Positions 2,988 to 11,243 of a DNA stretch of 11,243 bases are shown here, in pieces. This DNA comes from a virus: the IMG/VR virus record IMGVR_UViG_3300045988_173323; one strand, 5' to 3'. The notes under the pieces were generated by a model. The model was not told where the DNA came from and made no database searches. It saw only the letters and a list, made by a program, of their open reading frames with translations. Within the stretch, counting starts at the first letter, position 1, and every line of letters begins with the position of its first letter. A program made the position numbers and the translations under genes.

Positions 2988-3164
2988 TTGACAAGAGAAG
3001 AATTAAGTGCGGAATTGGGTATAAGTGAGAATAGAATATTACGTCACTGGCGGGAAGTGTGTAATAGCTATGAGCGGATTGGGATTAAGTTGATTAAAAG
3101 AGGGAAGGGAAAAAACGCGGAGTATGGTATTTTAAAAAAAGACGAGACTGTAGCAAGATTTTAG
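2988..3164 (+). CDS. Small helix-turn-helix DNA-binding protein (about 59 aa) with a probable TTG start. Candidate regulator of the divergent operon.
   Basis: The track ORF begins at TTG 2925, which is itself the -35 of the promoter. In frame, TTG 2988 is preceded by AAAGAGGA at 7-nt spacing. The product MTREELSAELGISENRILRHWRE... has an HTH-like segment. Confidence 0.55.
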   Translation: MTREELSAELGISENRILRHWREVCNSYERIGIKLIKRGKGKNAEYGILKKDETVARF

Positions 3165-3595: not shown

Positions 3596-3649
3596 TTGAA
3601 AAAGTGTACAAACCAATGATTTGTTGAAATTTTTAAGCAAATGTTGAAA
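3596..3649 (+). promoter_or_regulatory. Three direct TGTTGAAA repeats upstream of gene 3694..4311. Candidate operator or promoter-element array.
   Basis: TTGAAA at 3596-3601, 3624-3629 and 3644-3649, in contexts gtgTTGAAAaag, ttgTTGAAAttt and atgTTGAAAata. No well-spaced -10 partner is found, so a regulatory-site role is preferred over a plain promoter. Confidence 0.35.
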
Positions 3650-3693
3650 ATATTTTAAGTATAAATTTTATGTTTAAATATAAGGAGGGAAAT

Positions 3694-4311
3694 ATGGAAA
3701 TTCAAAAAAATTCAAGGCAAATACCTAGTAATAAAATTTATACTGCTAACAAGAAGTATTCAGATATTCTATATGGATATTTACAACATAATTCTCTTTT
3801 AGACAAAGAGTGCGGAATTAGGTATATACTTAAAAAAGATATTAGCTTCGTAAAAATTGCTAATGAATTAAAGATGCATAGACAAACAGTTTCAAATAAA
3901 TTTAAAGTTTTGATAGAACAAAATTTGATTAGATACAATGAAGAATTAAAAAGATATGAATTAGTTACTATTGATAAAACATTAGCAACTTTATTGCCAG
4001 ATGAAACAGTTAGGATTTGTTATAACACTTTGCAAGATAGATGTTTAAGTATATTGGCTTATTTATTAAAAACTTATATTCAACATAATGAATCTTCTTG
4101 TCAAATAAATTTAGATGTTATAAAAGAATATGTTGGAATTTGTGTTTCAAATAGAGGGTGTAATAATCAGGTTATAAAGGATAGTCTTTTAATATTGCAA
4201 AAGTTAGGTTTTATTCAGTACCATACAGAAAGAAAATTAGATGAGGAAACAGGTGGTATAAGAACTATTTATATTTTAGATAAAGTGTATAATTTTGTTA
4301 CTTTTGATTAA
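3694..4311 (+). CDS. HTH-containing DNA-binding protein (205 aa). Function is undetermined: regulator, or possibly a replication/initiator-type protein.
   Basis: Start moved to ATG 3694 (TAAGGAGGgaaatATG). Track start 3670 has no SD. HTH-like segment: IANELKMHRQTVSNKFKVLIEQNLI. Confidence 0.8.
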   Translation: MEIQKNSRQIPSNKIYTANKKYSDILYGYLQHNSLLDKECGIRYILKKDISFVKIANELKMHRQTVSNKFKVLIEQNLIRYNEELKRYELVTIDKTLATLLPDETVRICYNTLQDRCLSILAYLLKTYIQHNESSCQINLDVIKEYVGICVSNRGCNNQVIKDSLLILQKLGFIQYHTERKLDEETGGIRTIYILDKVYNFVTFD

Positions 4312-4341
4312 AAGATATAGTAAATAAAATACTAAGTAAAA

Positions 4342-4498
4342 TTGCAAAATGTCGAAAAAGTGTAACACAATATAATAGTAGAAGTAATTTCATTACTTCG
4401 TATTCAAGCACTTCGTGCTTTCATACTCGTAATGAAATTACTTCTTAGCCGCCGATAATTTTGCAAAATGTCGAAAAAGTGTAACACAATATAATAGT
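4342..4498. repeat. 38-bp exact direct repeat (4342-4379 and 4461-4498) flanking a 66-bp inverted-repeat element (4380-4445).
   Basis: DR is ttgcaaaatgtcgaaaaagtgtaacacaatataatagt. Each copy carries TGTCGAA at 4350-4356 / 4469-4475 and a TATAAT. The element between them has 17-bp perfect outer arms (agaagtaatttcattac / gtaatgaaattacttct) and an inner gcac-ttc-gtgc hairpin. Confidence 0.8.
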
Positions 4499-4570
4499 GG
4501 TATTAAAATTATACCAGAAATATTATATTATATATTATACATAACTATTATATAATAATAATAATAATAT

Positions 4571-4607
4571 AGGTAATGTATCATACCGAAGGTATGATAC
4601 ATTACCT
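4571..4607. repeat. Perfect palindrome or hairpin (17-bp stem, 3-nt loop) preceded by an (ATA)n run.
   Basis: aggtaatgtatcatacc-gaa-ggtatgatacattacct. No flanking T-run on either strand, so not a canonical terminator. Confidence 0.75.
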
Positions 4608-4619
4608 TAGTGTAAATTA

Positions 4620-5400
4620 AAATGAAGAGTTTTATGCGGGGTGGGGTATTTAGTAGTTGAATCCGCTTTGTTTTAGAGGGACTCTTGTTTAATTTTAAAA
4701 TGTCAAGGAACGTTTTAAAAAATGATTTGAAAATTTTAAGGTTTAAGTAAATTAGGAAAGTTTTTCGGAAGGCATGAGAAAAAGTAAGAAAAGAAGTATG
4801 GTATATTTAGAGAATGGCAAAGAATATTACTGAATAATAACAAAGAGTTAGAGAGTTTTGTTAAAAACGAGTTATGGTTTTTTGGTTAGAAAAGTGTGGA
4901 AGAGGGTATTTAAATTATAAGAGAAGTATGGGAGTGCGGAATTGAATTTAATTAAAGTGCTTCCGCATTTAAAAAGCAAGGTTAAATAAAAATTGCGGGT
5001 TACAGAATTGCTTAAATAAAATTATTAAAATTTTGCGTGAGGAGTTTGATTTTGGAGAGAATTAAGGGTAGCTTTAATAAAATATAAAGATTGGATTAAA
5101 GGTGCGTAAGGTTAAGATAATAAAATATTTTAGAATTAGAGGGAATTGAGGATAGGTTAGCAAAAATAATAAGACTGAGCAAAGAGAATTTAATGTTTGG
5201 GTTAAGAGAAAGTATAAGTTAGATTAAGAGAGAAGAAGGTTGAAGTATATAAAATAATAAGCGGAAGTGAGGATTTTGAGATTGGGTTAAGAGAGGAGTG
5301 AGATTAGAGTGAGAGAGCGTAGAATTGGAGTGTAGAGAGGATGAGAGTGAGGCGTGAGTGGAGAAAGGATAGAGCGAGGCTGAAAAAATGCGAGAAAAAG
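4620..5400 (+). other. About 780-bp strand-asymmetric non-coding tract. The + strand is purine-rich and nearly C-free (roughly 35 C, about 4-5%).
   Basis: I counted C per 60-nt line; nearly every line has 1-4, and 4921-4980 has 6. No ORF of credible composition exists on either strand. GAG/GTGAG-rich degenerate repeats occur, e.g. gggttaagaga twice and GAGGAnTTTGAnnTTGG twice. It lies between convergent genes. Confidence 0.7.
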
Positions 5401-5403
5401 GTG

Positions 5404-5441
5404 AAAAAAATTGTGAGAGTGAAGTGCTCAGCCTCACTCTC
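5404..5441 (-). terminator. Rho-independent terminator for gene 5463..5858.
   Basis: Stem gagagtga (5415-5422) pairs with tcactctc (5434-5441). On the minus strand it is followed by T7 (plus aaaaaaa 5404-5410). It lies 22 bp past stop 5463. Confidence 0.65.
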
Positions 5442-5905: not shown

Positions 5906-5934
5906 ATTATATCAAAAAATTATAGAAAATTCAA
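5906..5934 (-). promoter_or_regulatory. Sigma-A promoter (TTGAAT, 17 bp, TGaTATAAT) for 5463..5858.
   Basis: Minus strand reads ccTTTGAATtttctataattttttgaTATAAT. The -35 is plus 5929-5934 and the -10 is plus 5906-5911. Confidence 0.6.
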
Positions 5935-6175
5935 AGGGGAAGACATCTTTCTAGCTATTGTTGGGCTTAATTAGTTTCCAAAAATTTTAAATGAGATAAG
6001 GCTCGACGTAAAAATGGAAGGCGGAAAATAAAAATGGCTTTTTTTACTATTGTATCATATATTTTGTTAAAAATCAAGCGGAGAGAGGTGAGGTATGTTG
6101 AAATTGCGGGATTCTAGAGTAGTGATTCAAAATTCCAAACATCTAGCGAAAAAGCCCATATGGACGATCTTTGGG

Positions 6176-6241
6176 GTAGGTCGGATCCGAGTCCTTTGAA
6201 CTCGGACCGCTGATTATATCACAGCCGCCGCGTTTTGTCAA
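6176..6241 (-). promoter_or_regulatory. Consensus promoter (TTGACA, 17 bp, TGaTATAAT) whose transcript starts directly with an AGCGG-plus-hairpin element.
   Basis: -35 is plus 6236-6241 and -10 is plus 6213-6218, with an exact 17-bp spacer. Downstream on the minus strand: cagcggtccgagttcaaaggactcggatccgacc (stem ccgagt/actcgg). It reads toward 5463..5858, about 350 nt away. Confidence 0.55.
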
Positions 6242-6293
6242 TAGGCAAATTATATAAATTTTTCATTATTTTTTTAGTAATATTGCACAAAAA

Positions 6294-6347
6294 GTCATTT
6301 TTACCAAAAATTTCATTAAAAATAGGATTTTTTTTGGTAAAAATGAC
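6294..6347. repeat. 17-bp inverted repeat with a 20-bp spacer.
   Basis: gtcatttttaccaaaaa (6294-6310) pairs with tttttggtaaaaatgac (6331-6347). Confidence 0.7.
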
Positions 6348-6365
6348 TAAAATAAATAAAAATGT

Positions 6366-6402
6366 ACAAAAAAATAGCCAAAAACCGCGTAATTTTTGGC
6401 TA
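6366..6402 (-). terminator. Rho-independent terminator downstream of 6524..6919.
   Basis: Stem tagccaaaaa (6375-6384) pairs with tttttggcta (6393-6402), loop ccgcgtaa. The plus-strand A-run 6367-6374 gives a T-run after the stem on the minus strand. Confidence 0.6.
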
Positions 6403-6460
6403 TTTTATATAGAATATAGAATTTTATTGAATTTTTATAAGAAATTTTAGTTATTTTGTA

Positions 6461-6497
6461 TAGAATAGTCAGAAATGTAAATTTTCTGACTATTCTA
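6461..6497 (-). terminator. 15-bp perfect hairpin immediately downstream of 6524..6919. Probable first terminator or RNA 3'-end structure.
   Basis: tagaatagtcagaaa (6461-6475) pairs with tttctgactattcta (6483-6497). The minus-strand downstream sequence is only moderately T-rich. Confidence 0.45.
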
Positions 6498-6523
6498 CGT
6501 AATTTTTAGTTACCTTGAACTGC

Positions 6524-6919
6524 TTACTCCTCTACAGCTTCCTCTTCCTCTTTTGCAAGAGAGAAATAAGGAACTCTTTTTTCAACTGTTCTAACTACCT
6601 CTCCAGATTCGATAAGCTGTTTAAGAAGAGCCGATAATTTCTGAGAAGAAAGTTTACTCATTTCAGAGTTTTCCTTAATCATGGTTGAAACTGTAACAGG
6701 TTTATCAAATAACTCCAAAGCTACAAGAATAAGTTTTTTGACTTCCTCATTTTCTTTCTGGTTTTTGGTTTTTTTACCGCTGGAAGATTTTTTATTCAAC
6801 AGCTCGATTTCATGTCTGAGAAAGTTAAGTGCTTCTTCTTTTGGTTCAAAGCTACTTTCTTCCAGAAAAGCACTGATAGTTTCAAACCAATCTTTTTTTG
6901 TCATTTTGTCTTTCATCAT
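6524..6919 (-). CDS. Small acidic-tailed protein with a conserved C-terminal winged-helix-like domain (family A, copy 1), about 131 aa.
   Basis: Start set at ATG 6919 (GAGGTaatgaatATG, 7-nt spacing). It is paralogous to 9103..9510, with a near-identical C-terminal half PVTVSTMIKENSEMSKLSSQKLSALLKQLIESGEVVRTVEKRVPYFSLAKEEEE. Confidence 0.8.
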   Translation of the reverse strand: MMKDKMTKKDWFETISAFLEESSFEPKEEALNFLRHEIELLNKKSSSGKKTKNQKENEEVKKLILVALELFDKPVTVSTMIKENSEMSKLSSQKLSALLKQLIESGEVVRTVEKRVPYFSLAKEEEEAVEE

Positions 6920-6952
6920 ATTCATTACCTCTTTCTTTCTTTTGATATATTT

Positions 6953-6981
6953 ATTATAGCATACTTTTTTGTTTTTGTCAA
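6953..6981 (-). promoter_or_regulatory. Consensus promoter (TTGACA, 17 bp, TATAAT) plus conserved leader. Part of a roughly 62-bp near-identical repeat copied at 7208-7270.
   Basis: -10 is plus 6953-6958 and -35 is plus 6976-6981. The leader aaatatatcaaaagaaagaaagaggta runs into the ATG. Confidence 0.65.
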
Positions 6982-7012
6982 TTACTTTTTTTATTTTTTT
7001 CTTTTCTGGTGC

Positions 7013-7201
7013 TTATCTAATGTAAGCACCAGCAATAGACTTAACAGAGCCATCAGCATTGAAAAAGATAACATTATTCTGGATAACGTTGATACCTTTA
7101 TTCTTTGCAAAATTTCTGAACACAAAGTCTGTATTCCAGAGTTTGATAAAATCAGCTTTTCTCATGCTTGCAAAACCTTTTGTGTAATTCATTGTTCTCA
7201 T
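7013..7201 (-). CDS. Hypothetical small protein (about 62 aa).
   Basis: Start ATG 7201 (GAGGTattgtctATG). The track's TTG start at 7207 is 6 nt upstream. It has its own consensus promoter. Confidence 0.65.
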   Translation of the reverse strand: MRTMNYTKGFASMRKADFIKLWNTDFVFRNFAKNKGINVIQNNVIFFNADGSVKSIAGAYIR

Positions 7202-7234
7202 AGACAATACCTCTTTCTTTCTTTTGATATATTT

Positions 7235-7263
7235 ATTATAGCATACTTTTTTGTTTTTGTCAA
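7235..7263 (-). promoter_or_regulatory. Consensus promoter (TTGACA, 17 bp, TATAAT). Second copy of the promoter-leader cassette.
   Basis: Sequence 7208-7270 is nearly identical to 6926-6988. -10 is plus 7235-7240 and -35 is plus 7258-7263. Confidence 0.65.
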
Positions 7264-7278
7264 TTACTTTTTTATTTT

Positions 7279-7482
7279 TTAATTTTTTCCAAGATACTCT
7301 TCAAGATGCTCGTTTAAGAAATTTATAGTTTCATCCAACCCGCAAATCTCACAAAAGTTTTTAAAAGCTTTTTCAAGTTCTTTTTTTCTAGTTGCTTTTA
7401 TTAATTTAATACAACTCTCATAATCTTCTTTTGTAATAACAAAAGGAACGCATCCATCTTTTTTCAATGTAAATTTTTCCAT
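7279..7482 (-). CDS. Hypothetical small protein (67 aa) with several Cys (C11, C24, C44, C47).
   Basis: RBS AGAGAGGcaaataaaaATG. It has its own promoter. Confidence 0.7.
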   Translation of the reverse strand: MEKFTLKKDGCVPFVITKEDYESCIKLIKATRKKELEKAFKNFCEICGLDETINFLNEHLEEYLGKN

Positions 7483-7514
7483 TTTTATTTGCCTCTCTTT
7501 CTTTTGATATATTT

Positions 7515-7543
7515 ATTGTATCACATCTTTTGACTGCTGTCAA
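7515..7543 (-). promoter_or_regulatory. Consensus promoter (TTGACA, 17 bp, TGaTACAAT).
   Basis: -10 is plus 7515-7520 (revcomp TACAAT) and -35 is plus 7538-7543. It shares the leader aaatatatcaaaagaaagagagg. Confidence 0.6.
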
Positions 7544-7549
7544 GCACTT

Positions 7550-7969
7550 TTATAAAATATTTTCAGCTTTTAAGTAATCTCTATAGGAAATATAGCCATT
7601 TTCCGCGAGCCACCTATCACAAGCGTTGGATTCTCTCCAATAATACTCCTCCCAGACTGGAAAAGTTATTATTATTTTATCACTTTCTTTTTTAAGAATA
7701 GTAATAATTGTATTAATACAATGTCCTTTACCCTCAAGCCATTCCTTGAAAGTAACCTTTTCTGCCGCTTCAAACGAAATTGTAAATGAGAAATTAAGCT
7801 CTTTTCCTTTTTCTGTGAGAAAATCAGTTAAATAATTTACAAACTCTTCTTCCTCATAGTTACTTTCGTCCAGCAGTGGAGTTTCTAAAAAATGCTCATT
7901 TGCTGGATTATAAAATCCATTTCTTTTGATGTCTTCAATTAACATTTTAACAACTTTTTCAATTTTCAT
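7550..7969 (-). CDS. Hypothetical protein (139 aa).
   Basis: RBS GAAGGAAtgggataaaATG. Ordinary composition. It has its own promoter. Confidence 0.75.
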   Translation of the reverse strand: MKIEKVVKMLIEDIKRNGFYNPANEHFLETPLLDESNYEEEEFVNYLTDFLTEKGKELNFSFTISFEAAEKVTFKEWLEGKGHCINTIITILKKESDKIIITFPVWEEYYWRESNACDRWLAENGYISYRDYLKAENIL

Positions 7970-8140: not shown

Positions 8141-8464
8141 TTAAAAATAACTTCCTAAGCTTGTAATAAAAGTGCTTTCTACAATAAGTTTATTATTTAT
8201 ATAATAAGTAAAAGCAATAGAAGTTACATAAACAGCCAGACCTAAGAGTGAACTTTCAAAAGCACATTCCTGAGAGATATTAAATTTATAGTTTTTATGT
8301 TTAGGATTTTCTTTTAAGAAATTGAAAACAGTCTCGCCTAAACAATCGCCTTTATTATTCATTTCCATGTAATTATGTCTTTCAGAGTTCCAAAAACCGT
8401 GACTGTCTAAAAAATCATAAAGGTCTGCCATTGTCTCCTCAAACATTGTTAAATCGTTTGCCAT
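8141..8464 (-). CDS. Hypothetical small protein (107 aa), family B copy 1 (GFW-S motif).
   Basis: RBS GAAAGAGGTatttaatATG. N-terminal DLYDFLDSHGFWNSE aligns with NRLEDDLIKAGFWDSD of 9629..9922. Confidence 0.75.
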   Translation of the reverse strand: MANDLTMFEETMADLYDFLDSHGFWNSERHNYMEMNNKGDCLGETVFNFLKENPKHKNYKFNISQECAFESSLLGLAVYVTSIAFTYYINNKLIVESTFITSLGSYF

Positions 8465-8499
8465 ATTAAATACCTCTTTCTTATTTATTTTATGTATAC

Positions 8500-8528
8500 A
8501 TTATATCAAAAGAAAAAATAAAAGTCAA
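8500..8528 (-). promoter_or_regulatory. Consensus promoter (TTGACT, 17 bp, TGaTATAAT).
   Basis: -10 is plus 8500-8505 and -35 is plus 8523-8528. Confidence 0.6.
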
Positions 8529-8559
8529 TGGCATTTTGCACAAAGTATAATAAAATATT

Positions 8560-8760
8560 TTGTCTATTTTGACTATTGACAAGTTTAGCATTGTGCATAA
8601 CAGAGAAAATTGGCGAATTTTGATATAAATTTTTGTTCATTTTACCTATTGACAAAGAATTTTGTGCAAAACAGAGAATTTTGGGATAAAAAATTTTTTA
8701 TTTTTGTGCATTTTTTCTCTTGACAAAATTGTTAGCGTGTGATATAATGGATATTTCGGT
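8560..8760. repeat. Three tandem degenerate units of about 60-70 bp. Each has a TTGACA followed by a TTGTGCA(a/t)AACAGAGAA-type box. Only the last unit retains a consensus -10.
   Basis: ctaTTGACAagtttagcattgtgcataacagagaaaattgg; cctaTTGACAaagaattttgtgcaaaacagagaattttgg; ctcTTGACAaaattgttagcgtgtgaTATAATgg. Confidence 0.6.
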
Positions 8761-8813
8761 CGCCTTGATCCAAGGCGACCCGCTATTATATCACACTTTC
8801 GGGTGCTTGTCAA
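8720..8813. promoter_or_regulatory. Face-to-face (convergent) consensus promoters on opposite strands, flanking a nested palindrome.
   Basis: Plus: TTGACA 8720-8725, 17 bp, TATAAT 8743-8748. Minus: -35 at plus 8808-8813, -10 at plus 8785-8790, 17-bp spacer. Between them: gtgtgatataat..ggtcgcc-ttgatccaa-ggcgacc..attatatcacac. Confidence 0.6.
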
Positions 8814-9024
8814 TAGGCAAAATAAACAAAATTAAAAAATTTTTGAGCATTATCTTTGTTACATTTTCACAAAATTATAGACTGGAACTCTTTGTGCAAC
8901 AATACCAAAATTATAAAAATTTTTTAGCTATTTTTTGTAATTTATGTACATTGACTTTTTTGTTCTCTGGTATTTTTGAATAAAAAACATCCCTCCAGCA
9001 GCGGATTTTTTGTGCAAAAAGTAG

Positions 9025-9072
9025 AAAAAAAAATGCACAAAAAGGAGGACGGATTTTGTGCAATCCGCCCTC
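9025..9072 (-). terminator. Rho-independent terminator for 9103..9510.
   Basis: Stem gaggacggat (9045-9054) pairs with atccgccctc (9063-9072). It is perfect with one G-U wobble in minus-strand RNA. The minus-strand downstream is cuuuuugugcauuuuuuuuu. Confidence 0.6.
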
Positions 9073-9102
9073 TTGACAAGGTTTATAAGTTACTTTTTAG
9101 TT

Positions 9103-9510
9103 TTACTCTTCTTCCTCAACTTCTTCTTCTTTTGCAAGAGAAAAGTAAGGAACTCTTTTTTCAACTGTCCTGACCACTTTGCCTGCCTCAATCATTTTTT
9201 TCAACAGTGCAGATAACTTCTGAGAAGAAAGCTTACTCATTTCGGCGTTCTCTTTAATCATTGTAGTTACCGTGACAGGTTTACCAAACAGCTCTAAGGC
9301 AATTCCAATAAGTTCCATAAGCTCCTCATTTTCTTTAATGTGAGCTGTTTTCTTTTTGCCTGGTGCTGAAGATTTCTTATTTAACAGTTCAATCTCGTGA
9401 TTGATGAAGTCAAGTGTTTCTATTTTTTTGTCAAAGTTTTCGGTTTTTTCTACGATGCCAACCAGCAGTTTGAAAAAGTCTTTTTTTGTCATTTTTGTTG
9501 TGTTTGTCAT
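9103..9510 (-). CDS. Family A copy 2: small acidic-tailed protein with a winged-helix-like C-terminal domain (135 aa).
   Basis: RBS AAGAGGAatttaattATG. The C-terminal half is nearly identical to the 6524..6919 product. Tail EEEVEEEE. Confidence 0.8.
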   Translation of the reverse strand: MTNTTKMTKKDFFKLLVGIVEKTENFDKKIETLDFINHEIELLNKKSSAPGKKKTAHIKENEELMELIGIALELFGKPVTVTTMIKENAEMSKLSSQKLSALLKKMIEAGKVVRTVEKRVPYFSLAKEEEVEEEE

Positions 9511-9999: not shown

Positions 10000-10374
10000 C
10001 TATTTCTTTTTTGGCGGTCGATGCTTAATCAAAGAAATTGAATACTCGGACTCACCGATTTTGAAAGTAATTTCTTTTTGTGGATTTGCGATTGCTACAC
10101 TTTCAAAGTCCATTTCTTCATTTTCTTTTAAGTAGCTTGCTAAAATCTCAATAATTTTAACTTTTTCTGCATCAAGTTTGATTTCACGCTTTTTCGTGCT
10201 TTTTTTCTCTGGTGTACTCTGGACATAATTCTTAATGCCTTTAGCCTTAATCTCCATTTCTGCCATTTCAAGAGCTTCCTCTTTTGTTACGGGTTCTCCA
10301 TCCGCTTCAAATTCTTTCATAAGCTTAATAGCAAGCTTTTCGATTGCATCTGCGGTCACTGTTGTTTTAGCCAT
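10000..10374 (-). CDS. Hypothetical Lys/Glu-rich protein (124 aa).
   Basis: RBS aaaaAGGAtgtgatgtaacATG. It has its own consensus promoter. Confidence 0.75.
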   Translation of the reverse strand: MAKTTVTADAIEKLAIKLMKEFEADGEPVTKEEALEMAEMEIKAKGIKNYVQSTPEKKSTKKREIKLDAEKVKIIEILASYLKENEEMDFESVAIANPQKEITFKIGESEYSISLIKHRPPKKK

Positions 10375-10422
10375 GTTACATCACATCCTTTTTAAAATTT
10401 ACTATTAACTTGTTACAATGGT

Positions 10423-10451
10423 ATTATATCGCACCTTAGCTTAAAAGTCAA
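10423..10451 (-). promoter_or_regulatory. Consensus promoter (TTGACT, 17 bp, TATAAT). Part of a 52-bp exact repeat that also occurs at 11191-11243.
   Basis: -10 is plus 10423-10428 and -35 is plus 10446-10451. The -35 overlaps the TGA stop of the upstream gene. Leader contains ATTGTAACAA. Confidence 0.65.
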
Positions 10452-11158
10452 GCATTTTCGTGTAATTCTTTTCTTTTTTTCTGCGGCAGTCTCCAACATG
10501 ACGGCTTAATACTTCTATCCATTTTTTTATGCTGGTCAAAACATTTTTTCATAATTTCAATTTCAATTTTTACATCTTCTAAACCTGTATGAGATTCTAC
10601 AAAATCAATATTCTTTTTAATATATTTATAGCATACCTCAGCGTTAGTTAAAAGATTGCCTTTTTCAGACTCAAATCCGTTTTTCTCAGCAAATTTGATA
10701 TAGGTGTTTGTACTTAAAATCATCTGGCAAGCCATATTCCAAATACAAAAATATTCTGTGCCATAAGGGAAAAACCAGCGAATAAAACTTTTGCTATGGT
10801 ATCTAATAGCATTGTTTAATGCTTTTCTATCAAAATTCATATTGTAAGCACCAACTTTTTTCACATTATATTCTTTCATGTCTGCAAACATCTGTTTTCT
10901 AATATTGAAGATGCTTTTCATGGTTCTTTTTCCGCTTTTTAAATCATCCCAATATTTTGGGATTTTTTTAGCGTAGTAGGCACTATTCATAGCTTCTTTC
11001 AAGTCAATAAATGTCTCAGCGACTACAAAGCTTCTTTCGGTGACAATGTTACCGTGTCTATCTGCAATAGCATAACCAATATCATAAGGGATTGGCTCAT
11101 TTACACTATTCGCAGTTTCTGTATCCAATACCATGAAAAACTCTTTTCTTCTACTCAT
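10448..11158 (-). CDS. DEDDh-family 3'-5' exonuclease (DnaQ/RNase T-like), about 236 aa.
   Basis: Exo I MVLDTETA. Exo II YNMNFDRKAL. Exo III ESHTGLEDV. Start at ATG 11158 (GAGGAaatcaaaaATG); the track TTG start at 11173 is unlikely. Confidence 0.8.
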   Translation of the reverse strand: MSRRKEFFMVLDTETANSVNEPIPYDIGYAIADRHGNIVTERSFVVAETFIDLKEAMNSAYYAKKIPKYWDDLKSGKRTMKSIFNIRKQMFADMKEYNVKKVGAYNMNFDRKALNNAIRYHSKSFIRWFFPYGTEYFCIWNMACQMILSTNTYIKFAEKNGFESEKGNLLTNAEVCYKYIKKNIDFVESHTGLEDVKIEIEIMKKCFDQHKKMDRSIKPSCWRLPQKKRKELHENA

Positions 11159-11213
11159 TTTTGATTTCCTCAACTTTCATTTATTTTTTTTACTATTAAC
11201 TTGTTACAATGGT

Positions 11214-11242
11214 ATTATATCGCACCTTAGCTTAAAAGTCAA
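11214..11242 (-). promoter_or_regulatory. Consensus promoter (TTGACT, 17 bp, TATAAT) for the exonuclease gene. Second copy of the 52-bp repeat.
   Basis: Identical to 10400-10452. -10 is plus 11214-11219 and -35 is plus 11237-11242. Confidence 0.65.
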
Positions 11243-11243
11243 G

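Follow-up and report, generated by a model that had tools for sequence, protein, structure and literature searches.

We analysed an 11,243-nt stretch of viral DNA (IMG/VR record IMGVR_UViG_3300045988_173323, hereafter the window) and focused on two promoters that face each other across a GC-rich hairpin at 8720-8813. All positions refer to the window unless they carry a contig label of the form L001. Comparison with related sequences indicates that this pair is one copy of a conserved, non-coding, intergenic module found between early genes of widespread large gut phages. We consider it very probable that both sites are genuine sigma-A-type promoters belonging to this module, and most likely that the plus-strand site gives rise to a non-coding antisense RNA. 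The two promoters differ in kind, and we refer to them as P-long (antisense to the local genes) and P-short (sense). A preliminary description of this DNA had reported the pair and its hairpin; the difference between the promoters, the status of the antisense one as the conserved core, and the family-wide occurrence of the module go beyond it.

The window is AT-rich, with a GC content of about 28 per cent. A promoter scan identified six exact copies of TTGACA-17-TATAAT, each with a TG extended -10: five minus-strand copies (at 8813, 8033, 7263, 6981, and 6241) and a single plus-strand copy (at 8720). The plus-strand copy is P-long (8720-8748, a 12/12 match with a 17-nt spacer), and the first of the minus-strand copies is P-short (8813-8785, TTGACA-17-TGaTATAAT, also 12/12 with a 17-nt spacer). 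As first reported, the promoters converge, with their -10 hexamers facing each other across exactly 36 bp (8749-8784); the predicted start points are about 25 bp apart. By our own estimate a perfect promoter is expected at about 7e-7 per position in sequence of 28 per cent GC, and the chance that one would lie face to face with any of the five minus-strand promoters at a distance of 25-55 bp is about 1e-4.

The hairpin between the promoters (8758-8780, on both strands) was initially given as GGTCGCC and its complement, nested within the inverted -10 sequences. It is present there, with a longer stem than was stated: ten perfect base pairs (GGTCGCCTTG at 8758-8767 and CAAGGCGACC at 8771-8780) closed by the 3-nt loop ATC. 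Its folding energies on the two strands are -17.8 and -18.3 kcal/mol (z about -4), and none of 200 shuffled sequences was as stable. An intrinsic terminator, including a bidirectional one, can be ruled out here because a U-run is absent on both sides, where the stem is followed by CGCTATTATA (plus strand) and GAAATATCCATTATA (minus strand); the terminator scan made no call at the hairpin. The start-site region of P-long (8749-8757, plus strand) reads GGATATTTC, compared with a family consensus of GGAAATTTC or GGTGAATTC, and transcription is predicted to start about 2-5 nt ahead of the stem. The -10 of P-short is 4 nt from the stem, its start region is GC-rich, and its predicted start (G8780 or G8779) coincides with the first stem bases. 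The earlier proposal that both transcripts begin with the same hairpin is approximately right, with the qualification that the minus-strand start falls inside the stem.

The inverted symmetry reaches well past the hairpin. The extended -10 blocks (GTGTGATATAAT and ATTATATCACAC) are inverted repeats, and a wider palindrome continues out to 8689-8726 and 8807-8844 with 84 per cent complementarity, running through the extended -10, -35, and upstream regions. The two 17-nt spacers are unrelated to each other; that of P-long, AAATTGTTAGCGTGTGA, resembles the family consensus AAATTGCTGGCGkGTGg. Folded as single-stranded DNA, positions 8685-8848 reach -37 to -39 kcal/mol (z about -8). P-short is preceded by an A/T-rich upstream element, AAAAATTTTTTAATTTTGTTTATTTTGCCTA (8814-8844, minus strand), whose family form is TTTTGTnTAnTTTGnCTA-TTGACA, and the upstream element of P-long (8689-8719, plus strand) includes TTGTGCA at 8704-8710, 9 nt before the -35.

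To find the pair elsewhere, 2.9 million viral contigs were scanned with the pattern TTGACA-17-TATAAT-N25-55-ATTATA-17-TGTCAA. The scan returned at least 120 face-to-face loci, against an estimated chance expectation of about one. Among the matches listed there are eighty-six distinct spacers, twenty-five of them GC-rich and averaging 27 points above the GC content of their locus. These twenty-five have a median folding energy of -16.8 kcal/mol (z -2.5), compared with -4.9 kcal/mol (z -0.6) for the rest. The GC-rich hairpins comprise twenty distinct stems with 33 per cent pairwise identity in which pairing is nevertheless kept (median uninterrupted stem, 7 bp). Contigs carrying the module, again among the matches listed, are 60-200 kb long with a GC content of 28-48 per cent. 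Altogether the module is found in dozens of other large phage contigs, spanning 28-51 per cent GC and including phage phAss-1, and further copies lie on contigs of gut metagenome-assembled genomes (MAGs) assigned to Clostridia, Lachnospiraceae, and Bacilli, some of them evidently mis-binned.

The scan also returned unrelated families of exact face-to-face consensus pairs in phage contigs (L003-L120, matches listed). One has a 48-nt spacer (ACAGTCAAGGCAATACGCAAGAGCGTAATATTTGTATCTGGTAAATAT) and comes from about ten contigs, and another has a 46-nt AT-rich spacer and comes from about six, both counts being of the matches listed. Face-to-face pairs are therefore far commoner in phages than would be expected by chance.

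Among deposited genomes, only that of phAss-1 (OQ749652, 'code 15 clade') carries the module. DNA similarity searches against 50,697 deposited phage genomes gave no match to positions 8300-9300 of the window, and a module copy of 45 per cent GC matched phAss-1 alone. In the phAss-1 record (L189), a plus-strand 'hypothetical protein' at 6006-6950 runs across a face-to-face module at 6022-6112; the same coding sequence (CDS) overlaps a minus-strand match to an exonuclease-like gene, and it is probably a mis-annotation. The one related cultured Enterococcus phage that was scanned, H1 (40 kb), has no face-to-face pair, its early region included. A second pattern, anchored on TATAAT-N-GAAATTTC...ATTATA, was too unspecific and returned mostly chance matches in giant viruses. 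The Rfam 15 scan gave only two microRNA matches, at chance level and at other places in the window, and a tRNA scan of the window found none. The module is not described in the literature we consulted, which covered promoters that converge or lie face to face in early regions of phages, ONT-cappable-seq studies, and phAss-1; the phAss-1 paper does not discuss promoters.

One phage can carry several copies. The window's pair is kept in two 93 per cent identical relatives, L001 and L002, each of which has two further pairs of facing promoters, some 3.5 kb distant, whose hairpins are quite different. In the window's phage there are exactly three face-to-face pairs in 20 kb, all within 4 kb, and no strong antisense promoter other than their three P-long members occurs in those 20 kb. 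The pattern in L101 is alike: four module copies in 14.8 kb, with all four minus-strand consensus promoters being P-long partners, and each pair lying 15-20 nt past a plus-strand terminator. The pair also stands alone between flanking signals in L034, L042, L050, and L101.

Across the family, the parts follow a fixed order in the direction of the genes: upstream terminator, P-short, GC hairpin, P-long, A/T-rich TTGTGCA elements, and P-next, the downstream gene's own promoter. In relatives the terminator of the upstream gene directly abuts P-short, and its T-run merges into the P-short upstream element. P-long has the form TATAAT-GGAAATTTC-stem, or a near variant, and its spacer (AAATTGCTGGCGkGTGg) is conserved family-wide. 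In P-short, only 2-4 nt separate the -10 from the stem; the spacer varies, and the extended -10, TGTGg, is conserved. Variants of its -10 in relatives (TATACT, TAAAAT) retain the A and T positions critical for sigma. The sequence beyond the -35 of P-long holds, in order, TTGTGCA, the short motif TTTyGGGA, TTGTGyA in inverted orientation, and P-next. The hairpin sequence differs among copies, even inside one phage, and its stability has no strand bias (P = 0.47).

We then counted how regularly these rules hold, calling a unit P-long-type if its hairpin lies at least 6 nt past the -10 and judging orientation against nearby promoters without a hairpin. The counts are of distinct sequences, uncorrected for relatedness, at loci obtained with patterns that required parts of the module. 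P-long-type units are antisense in 102/105 cases and P-short-type units are sense in 76/79. About two-thirds of units retain P-short as a good promoter; in 38/102, P-long and its hairpin occur without a convergent partner, leaving a promoter, GGAAATTTC, hairpin, A-rich linker, and terminator, an arrangement also seen in MAG contigs. A canonical terminator is met by 55 per cent of P-long units, giving a predicted RNA of 80-120 nt (median 99), whereas none of seventy-eight P-short units meets one within 140 nt. A divergent sense promoter lies upstream of P-long in 90/92 units. In forty-nine of these ninety, the gap between the two -35 elements is 58-59 nt, and minor peaks near 47-51, 67-68, 79-81, and 92 nt are separated by about 10-11 nt, roughly one helical turn.

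In the window the pair sits in a 640-nt non-coding gap between two early genes on the minus strand. The upstream gene (9510-9103) ends in an intrinsic terminator at 9072-9045 (minus strand), which has an 11-bp stem with six GC pairs followed by CTTTTTGTGC and bounds the module on its upstream side, taken in the gene direction. At the other end, P-next (8528-8500, minus strand, TTGACT-17-TGtTATAAT) leads through a ribosome-binding site (RBS) to the ATG at 8464 of a 107-amino-acid early gene (8464-8141, minus strand) without a family match. With an own terminator on one side and an own promoter on the other, the pair stands alone and is not needed for the expression of its neighbours. The distance from the P-long -35 to the P-next -35 is 191 nt.

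On the plus strand, no credible open reading frame (ORF) follows P-long; one of 87 amino acids begins inside the -35 itself. As first suggested, the rightward transcript is most likely non-coding. The 'weak terminator' proposed for its end at 8990-9020 is not significant (plus strand, -8 kcal/mol, z -1.6). No T-run follows the stronger hairpin at 9045-9072 when it is read on the plus strand, and by the criteria used for the family no canonical terminator for the window's antisense RNA occurs within 300 nt.

The preliminary description also noted two degenerate promoter copies lacking a -10. Both are real: unit 1 is a TTGACA at 8576-8581 (plus strand) with AACAGA in the -10 place, and unit 2, at 8649-8654 (plus strand), consists of CTATTGACA then TTGTGCAAAACAGAGAATTTTGGGAT, has CAGAGA in the -10 place, and is conserved in L001 and L002. 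The TTGACA sequences at 8576, 8649, and 8720 are spaced by 73 and 71 bp. The two 'decayed' units have promoter-type upstream sequence that is 92-93 per cent complementary to 8806-8832, and they are inverted copies of the upstream and -35 part of the minus-strand (P-short) promoter type. Unit 1 lies 47 nt from the -35 of P-next, one of the recurrent back-to-back distances in the module family. Arrays of -35-only CTATTGACA units occur in this phage group. In L002, positions 3640-3900 of another long non-coding gap hold at least five (C)CTATTGACA units in both orientations, without a -10 and amid TTGTGCA and TTGTACA; the window's units at 8576 and 8649 are of like kind.

The motif TTGTGCA occurs nine times in the window, against 1.3 expected, and eight of these copies form a cluster inside the 640-nt gap (8537-9062). 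L002 has twenty-one copies in three clusters (3665-3879, 6932-7550, and 10260-10707). The motif is frequently present in inverted pairs, and about half of the sites also match the relaxed DnaA-box consensus TTWTNCACA. Because it mostly lies 8-10 nt upstream of a -35 (9/20 and 23/59 occurrences), we suggest that it is mainly a promoter-upstream element of this phage group rather than a DnaA box.

The wider setting is phage-like and fits early genes of a lytic type. The window is the early-gene array of an uncultivated gut phage of about 133 kb, related to phAss-1-like phages and probably infecting Clostridia. Its proteins resemble those of phages: an AAA ATPase (PHROG 2376) has about 44 per cent identity to proteins of large Enterococcus phages, and an exonuclease-like protein (PHROG 20187) matches proteins present twice per genome in other large Enterococcus phages. 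The exact 135-amino-acid protein adjoining the module is found on 133-135 kb contigs from several gut samples and has entries in 259 index blocks of the assembly collection, so the window's phage is common. On the 133-135 kb contigs the setting is an array of about thirty-five small genes, nearly all co-oriented (minus in the window), in which every normal promoter precedes a short leader, an RBS, and an ATG. There is no sign of lysogeny genes in this region, and a domain search found no repressor-like domain in the flanking proteins and no DNA-binding domain in the product of 8464-8141.

Other features of the array deserve brief mention. The gene directly upstream of the module (9103-9510, minus strand, 135 amino acids) has a 133-amino-acid paralog at 6524-6925 (minus strand); both early proteins have acidic C-termini and no family match, and the DNA is 76 per cent identical over 234 nt. 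A 55-nt promoter region (TTGACT-17-TATAAT plus leader) is 100 per cent identical before two consecutive genes (10398-10452 and 11189-11243), and the window ends within the second copy. The minus-strand promoter at 6241 is a partner-less P-short-type unit (6241 to 6213): TATAAT-CAGC is followed by a hairpin (GGTCCGAGT...ACTCGGATC), about 40 nt, and a T-run (unit 6241-6150). It could encode a small RNA of about 65 nt, and the gene that follows is served by a promoter of its own at 5934. Roughly 800 nt on the plus strand (4640-5440) are non-coding, purine-rich, and nearly free of C, with a GC skew of 0.5-0.7. Ahead of them are two 51-nt promoter-like direct repeats (4337-4387 and 4456-4506) and a hairpin with a 17-bp stem (4571-4607), and gene callers likewise leave the counterpart on a related contig free of genes (L190, about 14050-15200). 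Finally, an 18-nt motif, AGTGCGGAATTGGGTATA, has four plus-strand copies (at 3006, 3809, 4893, and 4933), and its core, AGTGCGGAA, also occurs about 100 nt from the module of the distant relative L034.

What the module does is a more difficult question. The explanation we favour, tentatively and at rather less than even confidence, is that it is a boundary and interference device built around the antisense promoter and needing no regulator protein. Both sites would be host sigma-A promoters working on duplex DNA. An open complex covers about -55 to +20, and convergent promoters are known to interfere by occlusion and collision, as at pR/pL of phage 186 and Pant/Psar of phage P22. Because the starts are about 25 bp apart, the open complexes of P-long and P-short would be mutually exclusive, and two polymerases would be unable to occupy the pair together. 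The start region of P-long, with GG and A/T-rich sequence, is expected to give stable complexes, and that of P-short is GC-rich; P-long would for this reason occlude or collide with polymerases coming from upstream. Those blocked would be polymerases reading through the terminator plus those initiating at P-short.

The P-long RNA itself would be short and hairpin-capped, about 100 nt in most relatives, and would end at the terminator of the upstream gene, where the scan also picked up a T-run for antisense transcription. In the window it would be less well defined, at about 260-320 nt. The module would then act as a boundary or one-way valve that isolates P-next, with which P-long pairs back to back at a fixed distance. 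The hairpin would place a 5'-terminal stem-loop on both RNAs, which would fit RNA stabilisers; such stem-loops stabilise RNA in Bacillus and other Firmicutes. A more specific version, in which three promoters form an antisense valve or insulator with host RNA polymerase as the sole regulator and the fixed spacing sets the activity of P-next, is somewhat less probable than the general one. If the boundary reading is true, a regulator-free transcription boundary element would be a class not described before. In a more radical variant, the paired copies may serve a tailed phage as hairpin promoters while its DNA is single-stranded or forms a cruciform.

A number of points weigh against a boundary device. 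The host is uncultured. An insulator has no obvious need of P-short, yet P-short is kept in about two-thirds of units. The window copy does not have the canonical antisense terminator within 300 nt, and its P-next lies at 191 nt rather than 58. How strong the block would be is uncertain, given that a polymerase in elongation will usually displace one sitting at a promoter. Conservation of the P-long spacer (AAATTGCTGGCG...) and the presence of TTGTGCA hint at a protein factor outside the model. In addition, the counts are of distinct sequences rather than independent evolutionary events, and the search patterns required parts of the module.

A second hypothesis, which we regard as unlikely but worth keeping in mind, is that the module is a small-RNA gene. 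Here what matters is the antisense RNA that P-long makes, which is capped by the hairpin and about 60-110 nt long in relatives. It would act in trans or on read-through transcripts, for example by pairing with these to form RNase III substrates or by titrating a host factor, and P-short and the interference would be secondary. The narrow range of predicted lengths (median 99 nt) and the canonical terminator of 55 per cent of units are what one would expect of such a gene, as are the conservation of the promoter and first transcribed bases (GGAAATTTC), the several copies per genome, and the partner-less units that consist of just a promoter, 5' hairpin, A-rich linker, and terminator. The RNA sequence is not conserved past about 9 nt at the 5' end, however, and hairpins vary within one phage. 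Rfam gave no match, the stability of the hairpin has no strand bias (P = 0.47), and the window copy has no clear 3' end.

It is less probable still that the hairpin acts at the level of DNA, with a single-stranded or cruciform fold rebuilding one promoter for sense transcription or primer synthesis, or serving as a transcription-primed origin. Positions 8685-8848 do fold into a 164-nt hairpin in which the -35 and -10 blocks are paired and the spacers form a 10x10 bubble. The conserved arm, P-long, is on the template strand of the genes, so a hairpin promoter would yield sense RNA, in keeping with the orientation rule. Face-to-face promoters in a palindrome are the duplex signature of an Frpo-type single-strand promoter (PMC11541004). 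Between L001 and L002 the interior of one hairpin is inverted ('flip-flop'), which suggests a hairpin in the DNA in vivo, and relative to these two contigs the window has one concerted A>G/T>C change in both arms.

The flip-flop concerns the second pair, where a 30-bp hairpin interior is exactly reverse-complemented between L001 (6504-6541) and L002 (7027-7064). It lies between 6-bp inverted repeats, and in a third relative, L081, the interior is shortened to 25 nt. Maintenance of arm pairing by compensatory change, considered from the comparison with L001 and L002, was not borne out across the family. The DNA-level hypothesis has further difficulties: the second arm is missing in 38/102 P-long units, complementarity of the arms outside the hexamers is not kept family-wide (the spacers differ, and A-runs in the upstream parts face T-runs), and the -10 variants of P-short retain sigma-critical positions rather than pairing. 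Both arms are full consensus promoters, so they should be active as duplex, and we know of no single-stranded entry stage for tailed phages. An origin in particular is at odds with the absence of a skew inflection at 8750 and with three copies within 4 kb.

The remaining two hypotheses are both very improbable. The preliminary description had likened the pair to a P2/186-type developmental switch, in which face-to-face promoters drive opposed regulators and choose between two programmes. The geometry is right for this, with -10 elements 36 bp and starts about 25 bp apart, close enough for the interference that is well established in phage 186. The comparison fails on content: no regulator gene is present, no ORF lies 3' of the plus promoter, the genes on either side have their own promoters and encode proteins without a repressor-like domain, and multiple copies (three in 20 kb here, four in 14.8 kb of L101) are found in a gene array of early lytic type. 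A neutral by-product, whether an inverted promoter duplication or a selfish palindromic repeat, could arise by recombination between the near-identical promoters abundant in the phage, with the -35-only copies as duplication debris, but the architecture, asymmetry, orientation, and spacing are conserved from 28 to 51 per cent GC despite different hairpins, and this conservation, together with a GC-rich hairpin maintained in an AT-rich genome, contradicts a neutral origin. Two smaller ideas were also discarded. The B. subtilis Chi sequence (AGCGG) is beside the stem in the window and not across the family, and mimicry of CRISPR (clustered regularly interspaced short palindromic repeats) was rejected because hairpins differ between copies in the same phage.

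Compared with known systems, the module is a member of none of them. The nearest working analogues are P22 Pant/Psar with its sar RNA, 186 pR/pL, and lambda oop, and the nearest anatomical one is Frpo/ssi. In the P22 immI region, as here, a very strong promoter faces an antisense one a few tens of bp away, a short terminated antisense RNA is made, and control needs no protein at the site. The P22 start points are about 69 bp apart, compared with about 25 bp in the module. The sar RNA pairs with the region of the ant RBS, whereas the overlap here is the hairpin only, with no coding region or RBS; the predicted antisense RNA of the window covers only intergenic sequence from the hairpin to the upstream terminator and includes neither a target RBS nor a coding end. 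The P22 arrangement is also single-copy, while the module occurs several times per genome and includes a third, back-to-back promoter. At 186 pR/pL and P2 Pe/Pc, convergent promoters likewise bring polymerases into interference by occlusion and collision. Those promoters are single-copy, repressor-bound, and attached to regulator genes (cI/apl, C/cox) of temperate phages, none of which applies here.

Frpo/ssi, along with the M13 minus-strand origin and the sso of rolling-circle plasmids, shares, as duplex DNA, an imperfect palindrome whose arms both hold -35 and -10 elements and whose spacer is unpaired. In Frpo/ssi the strand that folds is the template strand of the downstream genes (PMC11541004), and the conserved arm of the module is similarly antisense to local genes in 102/105 units. 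Unlike Frpo/ssi, a third of module units are one-armed, and both arms are full duplex consensus promoters. Lambda oop (from pO) is alike in being a short antisense RNA with a promoter just downstream of a gene and a strong terminator at its end; oop extends over the 3' end of cII, whose cleavage it triggers, while the module RNA mostly stops at the terminator without coding overlap. The host-takeover module of SPO1 and the early arrays of T5 also consist of small early genes, every one of them served by a strong promoter of the sigma-A type and closed by a terminator of its own, and we found no description in the literature of hairpin-centred convergent pairs in either. The 5' stem-loop stabilisers of E. 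coli ompA, B. subtilis aprE leaders, and ermC place a stable hairpin at the 5' end or within a few nucleotides of it, as in both predicted transcripts of the module. They stabilise coding mRNA, whereas one of the two RNAs here is non-coding and a single palindrome serves both strands. Interference between convergent or antisense promoters is already known, and a distinct, regulator-free type of boundary has a realistic chance of being what this module represents.

The module is a conserved non-coding element with rules of asymmetry, orientation, and spacing in large gut phages without a cultured host, a group whose regulatory DNA has had essentially no annotation so far. For annotation, it can mark early regions and the direction of transcription, and it flags likely errors such as the phAss-1 CDS drawn over a module. 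If the interference and insulator reading is true, these phages would keep dozens of very strong early units independent of one another without dedicated regulator proteins, and the module would supply compact promoter and insulator parts for synthetic biology in Firmicutes. A regulator-free boundary element would then be widespread in abundant uncultivated gut phages.

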